Shown in pieces: positions 19,708 to 24,836 of a stretch of 28,141 bases of DNA (position 1 is its first letter; every line of letters starts with the position of its first letter). A model generated the notes under the pieces. That model was not told the DNA's origin and did no database searches. It saw only the letters and a program-made list of their open reading frames with translations. The translations under genes were made by a program, and so were the position numbers. The stretch spans positions 1-28,141 of the forward strand of contig JBGTHM010000113.1 of NCBI GenBank assembly GCA_041746255.1, in the 5' to 3' direction. This stretch comes from Fibrobacteria bacterium (GTDB lineage Bacteria > Fibrobacterota > Fibrobacteria > UBA11236).

Positions 19708-20484
19708 TCAGGCGTGTAGGCGGGCGAATTCCTGTTGGCGGTTGATTTCGTAAAGCAGCAGGGCAAGGGCGATGGAGGCATTGTACGAATGGGCTCCAGG
19801 GCCTATGGGAAGGCTCAGGGTGACGGAGCAATTGCGGGCGATATGGGGTGGGATTCCTCTATCCTCTCCACCGATTACGGCGACTACGGGGCCCGTAAAG
19901 GCGTATTCAGCGACGGTTCTTTCCACTCGGCCGTCCAACCCGACTACGGCGAACCCTTCTTCACGAAGTAATTGCAATTCCCTATCCAAGGCATTTACCC
20001 GGCATACGGGAATTTTTTCCAAACTTCCTGCCGCCGCTTTGGCCACCGTGGGAGTGATGCCGGCGCCTCCTTTGGCGGGTAGCATAATTGCGTCAACCCC
20101 CATACCGGCCGAGGTGCGTAAAATCGCGCCCAGGTTACGTGGGTCTTCAATGGCGGCCGGAAGCACGATTAGGGGAGAGCCGCCGTTTTGCGCCGATTCG
20201 ATGAGACGAAGGCGAACTTCTTCCCAGGCATCGAGCGGGCGGCTGTGTTTGAAGGCTAAAACCCCTTGATGAACGCCTTTGAACCACTCGTCCAATTGGG
20301 ATTTGGGCAGTTGCTGAACGCGAATACCCAGTGCCTCGGCATTTTTCTGCATGGTATACAGACGGGGATTGCTATGCCCGAGCGCGAACACGATATGATT
20401 GACCAGTTGGGGGTTTTCTTCCAACAAGGTCTGGACGGCATTGATACCGGCTATCAAGGCATCCGTATCGACTCGGGCTGGCAT
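19708..20484 (-). CDS. rlmB: 23S rRNA Gm2251 methyltransferase (TrmH/SPOUT family)
   Basis: GINAV, HQGV, IEDPRNLGAILRT, KAAAG, IGGEDRGI and SYNASIA. Confidence 0.92.
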   Translation of the reverse strand: MPARVDTDALIAGINAVQTLLEENPQLVNHIVFALGHSNPRLYTMQKNAEALGIRVQQLPKSQLDEWFKGVHQGVLAFKHSRPLDAWEEVRLRLIESAQNGGSPLIVLPAAIEDPRNLGAILRTSAGMGVDAIMLPAKGGAGITPTVAKAAAGSLEKIPVCRVNALDRELQLLREEGFAVVGLDGRVERTVAEYAFTGPVVAVIGGEDRGIPPHIARNCSVTLSLPIGPGAHSYNASIALALLLYEINRQQEFARLHA

Positions 20485-20485
20485 A

Positions 20486-21646
20486 TCAAATCTCCGCTTG
20501 GGGATGTTTATTACGACGGGCGGTCACCTGGGCCTTGAATTCTTCAAAGAGGTAATGGGAATCCTTGGGACCCGGAGAGGCTTCGGGATGGTATTGCACG
20601 GAGAATACGGGAAATTCCCGATGCCGCAATCCGGCCACGGTTTTATCGTTGAGATTGATGTGGGTTATCTCGACCGTCTTTTTATCCAGGCTGTCGGGAT
20701 CCACGGCGAAGCCATGGTTTTGTGAGGTTATTTCCACTTTGCCGGTGCGTAGGTCCTGCACGGGATGGTTGGCCCCGCGATGCCCGAATTTAAGCTTATA
20801 GGTTTTTCCGCCCAAGGCTCGAGCGATTATCTGATGGCCCAGGCAAATTCCGAACATGGGGCGATAACCGAATAGATCGCGGGCCGTGTTGACGGCATAG
20901 TCGAGAACAGCGGGATCGCCCGGCCCATTCGACAAAAAGACGCCGTCCGGGTTGAGGGCTTTGATATCGGCGGCTGTAGCCGTAGCGGGGAATCTTACCA
21001 CCCTGGCGCCCAGGCTTCTCAGCTTACGCAGGATATTGTATTTGGCGCCGAAATCGATGGCTGCTATCAGCAATTCGCGCCCGTTGTCTTCCATGGGACG
21101 AAAGCAGAGCTCATGTTCGATTTGTTCCCAGTCGCTTTGATTCTCTACACTGACTTCCGCCACGAAATCGGTTTCATCAAGCGACGGGACCTTTTTCACT
21201 CTTTCGCGCAATTCGGTCAAATCGTATTCCCCGACCACGATAATTCCGTTCATCGCTCCTTTTTCACGGAGAATGCGAACCAGTTTGCGGGTATCTATAC
21301 CCTGGATTCCGGGTATGTTGTTGTGTTGTAAATATTGTGAAAGTGTTTGCAATCGATTGCCGTCACTTTTGCCTCGCCAATTGGAGGGGTTTTCGCAGCA
21401 ATTTTTAACTACTAATCCGCGGACCTGGATGCCTTTGGATTCGACATCATCCAGATTGATTCCGTAATTGCCGATTTCGGGATAAGTAAGGGTGACGATT
21501 TGACCGGCATACGAAGGGTCGGTCAGAATTTCCTGGTACCCGGTCATCGAAGTATTGAAACAGACTTCCCCCTGGCAATGAGTTTGCGCCCCGAATCCGA
21601 TTCCCTCGAAAAAAGTGCCATCTTCGAGCATTAAGACGGCTTTCAT
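20486..21646 (-). CDS. carA: Carbamoyl-phosphate synthase small subunit
   Basis: GEVCFNTSMTGYQEILTDPSY, LSNGPGDP, GICLGHQ and QYHPEASPGP. Confidence 0.98.
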   Translation of the reverse strand: MKAVLMLEDGTFFEGIGFGAQTHCQGEVCFNTSMTGYQEILTDPSYAGQIVTLTYPEIGNYGINLDDVESKGIQVRGLVVKNCCENPSNWRGKSDGNRLQTLSQYLQHNNIPGIQGIDTRKLVRILREKGAMNGIIVVGEYDLTELRERVKKVPSLDETDFVAEVSVENQSDWEQIEHELCFRPMEDNGRELLIAAIDFGAKYNILRKLRSLGARVVRFPATATAADIKALNPDGVFLSNGPGDPAVLDYAVNTARDLFGYRPMFGICLGHQIIARALGGKTYKLKFGHRGANHPVQDLRTGKVEITSQNHGFAVDPDSLDKKTVEITHINLNDKTVAGLRHREFPVFSVQYHPEASPGPKDSHYLFEEFKAQVTARRNKHPQAEI

Positions 21647-22509
21647 ACCTGATTCTCCTTATTTTCCGCCTTTAACACTCCTTGTTCCGAAATGATAAAG
21701 TCCATTTTCTGGTCGTGAGGCTGCAAAGGTAAATTAAATTCGGTTACCTGCACCGCGAAGCAAAGCGCAGCGCGGATTCCCGGCATTCGGTTTAAGAGCC
21801 GGTCGTAAAATCCCATTCCCTTGCCGATACGGCCGCCCTGGGTGTCGAATACCAGGCCAGGGACTAAGTGTAAATCGGGCACGAATTGCCGGTTTTCGAC
21901 CGCGACGCGGAGATCGGCTCGTGGCTCCCGAATACCGTAGCGTCCCTCCACCAAGTCCGCGTCAAAATTCTCAACCGGTGCCAAGCCCGGCGTAAAGTCA
22001 ATGGGTAGGGGCGGAGATTCCGGTTCGCGGCTGACGGAGTTGGCGGGTTCCGCAGGGTACGGGTGCTCAGCAGGAATAAAGGGCACGAGTAGAACCTTTT
22101 CGTCCGCCAATATCTTTCGGGCGATGGCTTCCGTGTCGATTTCTCCGTCTATACCTATAAAACAACTTACCACTCGGGCATTCTGATAAGGCTCCCAATT
22201 GGAAAGGGCCGTAAGAATGGCGCGAGAGCTTTGGGCCCTTTCCATCGAAGGAATGCGATGGATGTGGTCCCGGAATTTACTGCGTAAATCACTCGGATTA
22301 TCCACGGCGGTTTCCTTGAGTTCCCGGTTCTCCTGCTCCAAAATCAATTCATCCAAGCGGTTACGCATATTATGTTGAAAGTTCATGGCTTTACGTTTGT
22401 ATTTCTTGGCTTCCCGAATAAAATGCCCGACTTTTTTCGGTTCGACAAGCAGCAGAATCAGCACGGCGATTATGCCCAATTCTCCCAAGCCCAAGGAATC
22501 GAAAATCAT
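21643..22509 (-). CDS. Fusion of an N-terminal TatB/TatA-like segment with 5-formyltetrahydrofolate cyclo-ligase
   Basis: Residues 1-~60 are MIFDSLGLGELGIIAVLILLLVEP plus an amphipathic helix. Residues ~70-288 carry GEIDT, GRYGIREP, VPGLVFD..GGRIGKGMGFYDRLL and PHDQKMDFIISE. ATGA overlaps with tatC upstream and carA downstream. Confidence 0.85.
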   Translation of the reverse strand: MIFDSLGLGELGIIAVLILLLVEPKKVGHFIREAKKYKRKAMNFQHNMRNRLDELILEQENRELKETAVDNPSDLRSKFRDHIHRIPSMERAQSSRAILTALSNWEPYQNARVVSCFIGIDGEIDTEAIARKILADEKVLLVPFIPAEHPYPAEPANSVSREPESPPLPIDFTPGLAPVENFDADLVEGRYGIREPRADLRVAVENRQFVPDLHLVPGLVFDTQGGRIGKGMGFYDRLLNRMPGIRAALCFAVQVTEFNLPLQPHDQKMDFIISEQGVLKAENKENQV

Positions 22510-23279
22510 GCTTTGGCTTCCTGCTTAGCGGGTTTTTTTGCGGGTTGGGAATCCTTGTCGCCCCGGTAGGCCAAGGCACAAACGCCAATGGAAACGAAAT
22601 ATAAAAAGCACATGGGGATAGCCATCAGTAATTGTGAGACGGGATCGGGTCCCGGGGTGAGAACCGCCGCTATAATGAAAATCAGGATGATGGCATAACG
22701 GAAAAAGGACCACATTGCGCGAGGAGTCACGAGTTCCAAGCGGCCGAGTACAAAGGCGATAACCGGCAGTTCGAAAATCACTCCGAAAGCCAAGAGGAAT
22801 TGGCCGGTAAAGGCAGCATAATCCGATTGCTTCCAATGCTGTTCTACGGCGCCTTCCATATAGGTGGCCAAAAAGCCCAAACCGGCGGGTAGTACCACGA
22901 AATAACAGAAGGCCGCTCCAATGGCGAACATCACGACGGAGCCACTGAAAGCGGTAAGAAAAAGTTTTTTTTCGCGTTCGAAAAAAGCCGGTCCAAAAAA
23001 CAGCCAGGCTTGCCACATCACCCACGGAAAGCCGAGCAATATACCGGAGATTACCGATATTTTTACACTCACCAATAATGTTTCGAGGGGGGAGATGGCG
23101 ATTAGATTCACCGCCAGGTTTTGCTTGCCCAAGGGGTAGACAAGTATGGCCCAGATTTTTTCCCATTGGGAATAGGCGAGCAGGGACGTAATGACCACCC
23201 CCACTATGGCTTTTATCAGCCGGGAGCGAAGCTCGTCGAGATGGTCCCAGAAATTCTGTTGTGTATCCAATGGATTCAA
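22506..23279 (-). CDS. tatC: Twin-arginine translocase subunit TatC
   Basis: DHLDELRSRL, WQAWLFFGPAFFEREKK, FGVIFELPV and AAVLTPGPDPVSQ. Multi-TM. Confidence 0.96.
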   Translation of the reverse strand: MNPLDTQQNFWDHLDELRSRLIKAIVGVVITSLLAYSQWEKIWAILVYPLGKQNLAVNLIAISPLETLLVSVKISVISGILLGFPWVMWQAWLFFGPAFFEREKKLFLTAFSGSVVMFAIGAAFCYFVVLPAGLGFLATYMEGAVEQHWKQSDYAAFTGQFLLAFGVIFELPVIAFVLGRLELVTPRAMWSFFRYAIILIFIIAAVLTPGPDPVSQLLMAIPMCFLYFVSIGVCALAYRGDKDSQPAKKPAKQEAKA

Positions 23280-23318: not shown

Positions 23319-23528
23319 TTAGGCGCGATCTTTTTTTCCGATTTCGGGAGAGGATTTCGTGTCGGAAACGACTTTGCCTTCTTCCACTTCGCTCTTTCCT
23401 TCAAGAGAAGCTTTGAAATCCCGGATTCCTTTTCCCAATCCTTTGGCAATTTCAGGAATTTTTCGTCCCCCGAAGAGCAGAATAACGATAAGAAAGATGA
23501 TGATAAGTTCGGTGGGCCCAACTGGCAT
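23319..23528 (-). CDS. tatA: Twin-arginine translocase subunit TatA
   Basis: GPTELIIIFLIVILLFGGRKIPEIAKGLGKGIRDFK. ATG at 23528 with GGAGGT RBS. Confidence 0.95.
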   Translation of the reverse strand: MPVGPTELIIIFLIVILLFGGRKIPEIAKGLGKGIRDFKASLEGKSEVEEGKVVSDTKSSPEIGKKDRA

Positions 23529-23666: not shown

Positions 23667-24836
23667 TTAATTTAGTGGATTGCTCTCGCTTTTCGCGGTG
23701 TTATGCATTTCTACCCAAGCTTCCAAAAGCAGGGCTTCTTGCCATTGCATCATCCCAGCCGAAGACTTGATTTGGGAGAGGCTTTTCAAGCCGGTTTGAG
23801 CGACGGCAATCAGGATGGACTTGGGAGCCAGTAGGGAGGGGTCCAGTTGCAATTCGGTGGCGATACGGTCGCGAACCGTTTTTAGATTGGCAAGAACTCG
23901 GGAGTCGGGAATTTTGGGAGGCTTTCGCACGCTTTTTAATTTTTCCGGCCAAAGAGAGGCGGGAAGTTCCAGGCTTCTCTGGAAATTCTCCATGATCTGC
24001 CGTTTGAATTCCGGGTCCAACCGACCGGGTAAACCGGGAATTTGCTCCGGTTCCCCTTCCGGCGGCGCCACTTGAGCCAGTCGCATCAATAAATCGGTGG
24101 GCAAAATTCGATAAGGCGGCAGATCAAGCCGCTGTGCGGTGGCCTCCCGCCATTCCCATAGATTTTTCAAAACCGCCAATTGACGGGGCAATAAGCGAAA
24201 TGAACCCTCAACTCTCCAAAGGTTTTCTTTGTCGATTTCCTTGGATTTGGCTGTGTTCTCAATCAGCATGCGACAGGATTCCGCATGCCAGTTCAGGCGG
24301 CTTTTGAGATTCAATGCGGCCGTCATTTCGATATGTAATTTGGGGAGGAAAAACGTATCCTGTGCCGCATAGGCCAACATCTCAGGGGATAACGGTCTTC
24401 TGGACCAATTGGCTTTTTGGTGCTCTTTATCGAGGGTGATGCCGCAATAATGGTTTACCAGTGCGGCGAGGCCGATGGAGTTGAGGCCGAGCAATTGCGC
24501 GGCGAGCATGGTGTCAAAGATTTCGCGGGGGCGAAACCCGAAGAGTTGGTAAAGCATGCGTAAATCATAGTCCCCGCCATGAACCACCAGTTTTTTATCG
24601 GTCAAAGCCTCAAGCATTTCCGGTACGGGAATATCCGCCAGCGTATCCACCAGGTAACAGGTGTCACCAGCCAGAAGCTGCACCAGGCAAACTTTGGCGT
24701 AGTAGTGATACATGGAATCGGCTTCGAGATCGAGAAAGACGGTTTCGACGTCGCCCAGTTTTTCCAGCATGCGCCGGAATTCATTTATCTCATGGACATA
24801 AATGACATGATAGGGATTAGGTTTGGTTTCAGTCAT
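23667..24836 (-). CDS. rnd: Ribonuclease D
   Basis: DEDDy motifs FLDLEADS, HGGDYDL, FDTMLAAQ, NWSRRPL and YAAQD. HRDC region WREATAQRLDLPPYRIL. Confidence 0.92.
   Translation of the reverse strand: MTETKPNPYHVIYVHEINEFRRMLEKLGDVETVFLDLEADSMYHYYAKVCLVQLLAGDTCYLVDTLADIPVPEMLEALTDKKLVVHGGDYDLRMLYQLFGFRPREIFDTMLAAQLLGLNSIGLAALVNHYCGITLDKEHQKANWSRRPLSPEMLAYAAQDTFFLPKLHIEMTAALNLKSRLNWHAESCRMLIENTAKSKEIDKENLWRVEGSFRLLPRQLAVLKNLWEWREATAQRLDLPPYRILPTDLLMRLAQVAPPEGEPEQIPGLPGRLDPEFKRQIMENFQRSLELPASLWPEKLKSVRKPPKIPDSRVLANLKTVRDRIATELQLDPSLLAPKSILIAVAQTGLKSLSQIKSSAGMMQWQEALLLEAWVEMHNTAKSESNPLN

Follow-up and report, generated by a model that had tools for sequence, protein, structure and literature searches.

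What is a protein that begins like a subunit of the Tat (twin-arginine translocation) system and ends as a folate enzyme? The question is raised by a stretch of 28,141 nucleotides of a Fibrobacteria bacterium (GenBank assembly GCA_041746255.1, contig JBGTHM010000113.1), hereafter the window, in which one open reading frame (ORF) of 288 aa joins a TatB-like N-terminus to 5-formyltetrahydrofolate cyclo-ligase (5-FCL, YgfA/MTHFS). Our favoured reading, with a probability of about 0.6, is that the protein is the organism's TatB, that an active 5-FCL rides on it as a passenger tail, and that the halves are under separate selection. Open reading frame and domain scans gave a single stop-free frame, and the AlphaFold2 model (29 aligned sequences) has a helix at residues 8-21, a long helix at 24-66, a short linker, and the enzyme domain. 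The features of the protein, in window positions, are:

21643..22509, minus strand: tatB::ygfA fusion ORF, 288 aa, TatB-like N-terminus (residues 1-66) and 5-FCL; AlphaFold2 mean pLDDT 85.8
22447..22488, minus strand: short transmembrane (TM) helix, residues 8-21, from the model and alignment to TatB
22312..22440, minus strand: long amphipathic, cytoplasmic helix that follows the V22-E23-P24 hinge (residues 24-66), from the model and alignments
21670..22296, minus strand: 5-FCL domain, residues 72-280; PF01812 and TIGR02727 above cut-off, Foldseek
22000..22059, minus strand: Pro-rich insertion of ~20 residues in the enzyme domain; pLDDT 52-54 at residues 151-170, a gap in most aligned rows
21799..21831, minus strand: R-x-G-x-G-x-G-F-Y-D-R loop, residues 227-237, matching solved enzymes

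The enzyme half was recognised by profile and structure searches. PF01812 matches residues 73-275 (E 3e-32, 112.4 bits for a cut-off of 27) and TIGR02727 reaches 114.6 bits (cut-off 84.9). The top 12 Foldseek matches of the model, among them 2jcb_A (E 1.3e-16, target TM 0.81), are all structures of the MTHFS/5-FCL family (E 1e-16 to 9e-10), which identifies the fold as that of MTHFS. The complete domain and intact loop of the original prediction, made from the sequence alone, are thus confirmed: R227, G229, G231, G233, and D236 are invariant in 29 out of 29 aligned fusions. We take this loop to act in ATP/phosphate binding. R76 is intact; the Lys usually found four residues before it, which presumably binds ATP, is Pro72 in the window protein and Thr in the congener G001. 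The Pro-rich insertion varies between relatives and is modelled with low confidence. A profile search of the whole genome matched PF01812 only in the fusion ORF, which is therefore the sole 5-FCL; passages of PMC1971073 and PMC3223725 give the usual job of this enzyme as the disposal of inhibitory 5-formyl-THF (THF, tetrahydrofolate).

The nature of the first 66 residues is less obvious. The original prediction proposed a check against the MttA_Hcf106 profile (PF02416): it matches nothing in the window protein alone, and it does match 14 of 28 orthologous fused N-termini, of which 24 match TIGR01410 and 13 TIGR01411. The best NCBIfam matches of the window N-terminus are TatB models (TIGR01410, E 5.5e-5; NF047941, E 2.6e-5), both below cut-off. 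TIGR01410 gives 23.6-26.4 bits for a curated cut-off of 56.5, which is passed in only 3 of 14 control genomes. A profile built from the 28 fused N-termini has the solved TatB homolog 9e02_F as its first match (E 9e-11, 62 positions). At E ≤ 0.005 its matches comprise 11 solved TatA/B chains; TatA chains are spanned no further than position 36-42, apart from the chloroplast TatA 7b7o (4-52).

Passages of PMC5201420 characterise TatB by a Glu at TM position 8, normally an X-G-P hinge, L-P at positions 25-26, the lack of F39 and G33, and a longer amphipathic helix than in TatA, and state that TatB cannot be told apart unambiguously by any motif. E10, encoded at 22480-22482 and equivalent to E8 in E. 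coli TatB, is invariant in 29 out of 29 aligned fusions, as is G7, and lies in the modelled short TM helix, as had been claimed. The TatA-type F39 and G33 are replaced by A41 and K35, with a Phe at the F39 column in 3 of 28 orthologues. The hinge reads V-E-P, as noted originally, instead of X-G-P; among the 28 orthologues it has a Gly in 13 (G-P in 1), a Pro without Gly in 12, and neither in 3. V27-G28 occupy the place of L-P, and a second Pro is present in 10 of 28. The orthologues with a hinge Gly or a second Pro all belong to other classes, and the hinge Gly has been lost in the class of the window protein.

In E. coli, TatB E8 has T208 and Q216 of TatC as partners, according to passages of bioRxiv 10.1101/2025.09.16.676506. 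Across 27 aligned rows of the cognate TatC, F94, E103, and T208 are invariant and Q216 nearly so; the TatC of the window has all four, with Ala at the M205 position. Profile searches of the whole genome (100% complete) found PF02416 above cut-off only at tatA and TIGR01410 only at the fusion ORF and tatA, and revealed no second TatB candidate, which upholds the earlier statement on the window. A short N-terminal TM helix, an amphipathic helix, and sequence homology place the segment in the TatA/B family; a distinct TatA and TatC co-occur with it, and it is absent from the seven inspected genomes outside genus g16 (see below) in which TatC was not found. We conclude that the N-terminus is TatB-like and likely works as TatB despite its E-P hinge, making no claim to membership in the TIGR01410 equivalog. 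That it is the cell's TatB is supported by homology, sole-copy status, and co-retention with tatC. The suggestion that it might be a degenerate subunit acting only as an anchor is disfavoured by the invariance of E10, the hinge Gly of 13 out of 28 orthologues, and the departure of the segment when tatC goes.

The original prediction asked whether the fusion is conserved across genomes, and it is. The intact fusion is present in at least 112 of the 296 genomes of the phylum, in 17 of 21 families, in the window's class and in others. This is a hand count among the matches listed, by contig and open-frame length, complemented by direct reading, and is thus a lower bound; it includes G000 and the unpublished G021 (one genome, on which no claim rests) and omits G277, G286, G252, and G042 (unverified), G125 (contig end), G015 (stop), and G274 and G275 (loop-dead). 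Of the 296 genomes, 101 belong to g16. Matches to PF01812 occur in 286 genomes and matches to TatC in 235; the N-terminal profile, by which TatA is caught as well, has matches in 232. In a library clustered at 50% identity, 39 of the top 150 clusters align from the N-terminus of the fusion. Database names put the relatives in Fibrobacterota; most of the 28 full-length fused clusters that were looked up have no taxon name, and the fusion may also occur beyond this phylum. By parsimony, a single early origin in Fibrobacterota is most likely.

Some members of the family are altered. Genera g15 and g24 encode shortened fusions of 229-242 aa in which the first enzyme helix is largely missing (L076:3076-3804, L077:2652-3380, L070:2935-3624). 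The fusion of G015 (L105:300-1136) has a TAG inside the catalytic loop, which is either a truncation sparing TatB or an assembly error. In G085, tatA and the fusion are together (L092:1549-2674) and tatC is alone on another contig (L091:1623-2405).

The two halves also come apart. In four genera from three families (g23, g40, g48, g51) the TatB segment is a free gene after tatA-tatC, and the enzyme sits elsewhere, either free or, in g23, behind RNase D. The three of these small genes that were scanned have TIGR01410 as best match (E 1e-10 to 7e-8):

L085:1554-1718; L088:2159-2320; L093:2348-2512; L090, C-terminal end of ORF 2195-2596: mini-TatB genes of ~53-54 aa after tatC

Conversely, the enzyme has no TatB segment in any of the seven inspected non-g16 genomes without a TatC match (G038, G055, G082, G095, G123, G128, G264; 85-98% complete). 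Five of them (G055, G082, G095, G128, G264) encode a free enzyme. In G123, of family f6, 5-FCL is the N-terminus of a polytopic membrane protein of 784 aa (L064:4229-6583), and in G124 PF01812 falls within an 815-aa frame; neither genome gave a TatC match. In G131, of genus g23, RNase D is fused in frame to 5-FCL (584 aa, L066:2141-3895), and PF01812 lies in long open frames (584-695 aa) in G131, G132, G139, G140, and G141, which suggests that this fusion is common in the genus. The mini-TatB persists beside tatC, and the segment is gone from the inspected non-g16 genomes without a TatC match; the N-terminal module therefore goes with TatC and not with the enzyme, as expected of a working TatB. 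The splits, the enzymes of genomes without a TatC match, and duplication with loop decay (see below) show that each half can do without the other, and that the enzyme readily joins any neighbour placed beside it by a rearrangement. A separate oddity is the 5-FCL of G038 (L116:672-1865), a genome without a TatC match, which has no TatB segment but a long N-terminal extension of low complexity.

Under the favoured reading, residues 8-21 would insert N-out, with E10 pairing with the polar cluster T208/Q216 at TM5-6 of TatC, and helix 24-66 would build the cytoplasmic TatB triangle. On each subunit a folded 5-FCL in the cytoplasm would replace the flexible tail of TatB and would convert 5-formyl-THF, with ATP, to 5,10-methenyl-THF. 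The fusion would have arisen once, early in Fibrobacterota, between neighbours in a housekeeping cluster rnd-tatA-tatC-tatB-ygfA-carA, and would have lasted because a tail is tolerated by TatB and an N-terminal partner by the enzyme, each half being selected separately. Published data on E. coli are compatible with such a tail: passages of PMC9436932 and PMC13186574 describe it as dispensable for export, with about 50 residues sufficing, and those of bioRxiv 10.1101/2025.09.16.676506 as unresolved in cryo-EM. According to passages of PMC2821923, which concern assembly and not transport by those fusions, YFP fragments attached to the C-terminus of TatB do not prevent its assembly with TatC. A prediction of the complex of TatC (5-242) with the fusion (1-282) scored 0.00 in two runs in which the controls were not folded either, and is evidence neither way. 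The original prediction had the enzyme replacing the TatB tail, tethered to TatBC, and thereby linking folate salvage to export. The replacement is borne out, and the tethering is a probable consequence of homology, sole-copy status, and co-retention with tatC. The functional link is not: the halves separate in several lineages, the enzyme takes other partners, and the loop decays once a free copy exists. An obligatory folate-Tat link is therefore not supported.

Several observations weigh against the favoured reading. The usual X-G-P and L-P motifs are missing from the window protein, whose score stays below the TIGR01410 cut-off. The genomes are related, and the counts of the distribution are not independent. 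The four mini-TatB cassettes are alike and may represent one transferred event instead of four. For a neutral fusion, which a single stop codon together with an internal start could undo, retention over several classes is long. In g16, 100 out of 101 genomes have a different short hydrophobic segment at the N-terminus of the enzyme and TatC was found in only 68. Finally, full-length 5-FCL domains with a decayed glycine loop are still on TatB in three lineages (P0195/P0196; P0084; P0065):

L094:856-1644; L104:562-1347; P0196; P0084 (L119:3001-3783); P0065: loop-dead TatB fusions

G274 and G275 both have a fused domain without the glycine loop and a second match apart from it, which in G275 is an intact, free copy before carA. 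P0196 shares the loop decay of P0195, and those of P0084 and P0065 are separate. Beside the loop-dead P0084, the tatC (L119:2268-2999) seems by eye to lack counterparts of H13, E16, and E103 of the window TatC; this may be a non-canonical second Tat locus.

Genus g16, the largest, is presumably Fibrobacter. Its enzyme lies directly after rnd (L074:2649-3239, L075:2785-3375), where sister genera have tatA, and in the loci read in G035 and G037 neither tatA nor tatC separates rnd from the enzyme. The segment ends in F/L-G or a variant and by eye resembles the TM and hinge of a TatA without the Glu; it matched no NCBIfam model, so that a TatA origin is a by-eye resemblance only. That g16 lost Tat entirely was considered and rejected, as TatC is found in 68 of 101 genomes, at another locus in the genome inspected. 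G037 has a separate tatA-tatC pair (L086:1726-2985) with no tatB-like ORF seen alongside. The patchy presence of TatC suggests that a two-component Tat was either gained or lost repeatedly.

The loop-dead fusions speak for an alternative in which the 5-FCL fold was co-opted as the cytoplasmic domain of TatB and, in addition to catalysis or in its place, stabilises the TatB3C3 triangle or takes over the holding or proofreading of substrates done by the tail of E. coli TatB, and is kept even when catalytically dead. The full-length degenerate domains of three separate lineages agree with this, as do P0195 and P0196 (63-64% identity), which have their decay in common and have each retained the entire domain. 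Moreover, no aligned fused protein has a conventional long TatB tail, and passages of PMC9436932 attribute a chaperone-like quality-control activity to the extrinsic domain of E. coli TatB. Yet TatB genes of 53-54 aa stand free after tatC in four genera, and P0195 and P0196 are identical at 49 of their first 55 residues (hand count), so the dead domain drifts faster than TatB. Dead-domain cases are few (five sequences), and the TAG in the loop of G015 truncates the domain (one genome, possibly an error). On balance we find this alternative unlikely. Its phylum-wide form strikes us as doubtful: the fold would be a working cytoplasmic domain of TatB throughout, three domains would flank the TatB3C3 mouth for substrate holding, proofreading, or nucleotide sensing that outlives catalysis, and g16 would be a second tethering, possibly by a TatA-derived helix.

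Selection might instead act on the membrane tethering of 5-FCL, with the Tat-like segment serving mainly as an anchor and Tat running as TatAC or using the segment incidentally. The retention of the hydrophobic segment in g16, including G159, G205, and G228 where no TatC was found, the enzyme of f6 joined to a membrane protein, and the loss of the hinge Gly in the window's class all point this way. But the anchor was dropped in the five genomes with a free enzyme, E10 is constant in the 29 aligned fusions, and the segment survives without enzyme beside tatC, which makes this account rather improbable. A functional coupling, in which the tethered enzyme couples Tat activity to the state of folate or ATP, or acts in a pathway that depends on Tat, is the least supported of the biological readings and very improbable. 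The catalytic loop is indeed widely retained on TatB, but the repeated splits, the partner swaps, and the decay of the loop on TatB given a free copy speak against it, and passages of Tat reviews mention no folate-dependent Tat step (the word folate occurs 0 times in those of PMC13673990). Last comes an assembly or frameshift artefact that joins two genes, or an internal start that yields two proteins from a single frame, which we can hardly credit. There is an in-frame GTG (V69, 22303-22305) 7 nt after AAGGA, but relatives do not conserve V69, not even the congener G001, and one frame is found in the at least 112 genomes and in the 39 clusters. In a run labelled X1, one contig covers 21500-23600 with 0 differences, in agreement with the read check proposed for the junction; X1 may itself be where this DNA came from, a second run (X2) had no coverage at the junction, and the real protection against an artefact is the conservation of the fusion. 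The GTG with its AAGGA (minus strand, 22303-22317) lies at the domain boundary; it was set aside as an internal start since it is not conserved in relatives.

The fusion is real, widespread, and built from known parts. Its N-terminus resembles the TatB of TatABC systems (E. coli 2MI2/9DZZ; homolog 9E02; TIGR01410, PF02416) in its short TM with a Glu at position 8 (+2), its long amphipathic helix, the lack of F39/G33, and its position beside tatA and tatC, the cognate TatC having T208/Q216, F94, and E103. It differs from them by V-E-P for X-G-P, V-G for L-P, a score below the TIGR01410 cut-off, the order tatA-tatC-tatB, and a folded enzyme domain in place of a flexible tail. Compared with known 5-FCL (PF01812, TIGR02727; PDB 2JCB, 1SOU, 3HY6), the whole domain is above curated cut-offs, with the same fold and conserved loop, whereas the predicted membrane tether through TatB, the ~20-aa insertion, and Pro72 for the usual Lys set it apart. 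Passages of PMC13673990 describe another Tat subunit lengthened by gene fusion, the haloarchaeal tandem TatC of 14 TMs, which unlike TatB-5-FCL joins TatC to TatC. In the passages seen of this 2026 review of Tat evolution there is no fusion of a Tat subunit to a metabolic enzyme, and no mention of 'Fibrobacter' or 'folate'. The listings of literature searches, with subscription journals and supplements outside their scope, contained no account of a TatB-5-FCL fusion. An ESM Atlas cluster with an automatic name, '5-formyltetrahydrofolate cyclo-ligase family/mttA/Hcf106 family domain', already displays the architecture; it has 72 members, with PF01812 in 100% and PF02416 in 97%, and a score of 0.94. 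Its architecture is that of the fusion and its commonest phylum is Fibrobacterota, the label being automatic only.

Most families of the phylum seem to equip their Tat receptor with a folded enzyme of ~22 kDa per TatB. The fused database proteins with a source name are all called 5-FCL, except two with dead domains (hypothetical), and none is called TatB; with such labels, TatB may be overlooked in these genomes. The phylum offers a natural series of intact fusions, loop-dead fusions, mini-TatB of 53-54 aa, and free or re-fused enzymes, which makes it possible to test the purpose of the TatB tail and the bulk tolerated at the mouth of the receptor. Should the enzyme be no more than a passenger, the fusion would matter mainly as a phylum-level signature and for correcting annotations.

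The gene order in the window is rnd-tatA-tatC-fusion-carA-SpoU methylase, and the neighbours of the fusion are:

22506..23279, minus strand: tatC (PF00902, E 1e-62); its stop codon overlaps the start of the fusion
23319..23528, minus strand: tatA, 69 aa, F-G hinge, FK motif (PF02416, E 9e-17; TIGR01411 above cut-off)
20486..21646, minus strand: carA, carbamoyl-phosphate synthase small chain (PF00988, PF00117); its start overlaps the stop of the fusion
23667..24836, minus strand: rnd-like RNase D gene heading the cluster (PF01612, PF00570); recurs in relatives
19708..20484, minus strand: SpoU-family RNA methyltransferase after carA (PF00588, PF08032); recurs in relatives

Reading these genes confirmed the order tatA-tatC-tatB-like and the ATGA coupling given by the original prediction: the ATG of the fusion (22507-22509) overlaps the TGA of tatC (22506-22508). 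Its own TGA (21643-21645) overlaps the ATG of carA, again as ATGA, an overlap that had gone unmentioned. A scan of promoters and terminators gave no excess over shuffled sequences (6 versus 5.9 and 12 versus 9.4), so the operon structure rests on overlaps and synteny. The Tat signal model PF10518, too insensitive to list substrates, gave one match above cut-off in the genome. In G055, an ORF with long tandem Pro/Gly/Gln repeats of eight and seven residues (L098:3449-4321) adjoins the SpoU methylase gene.

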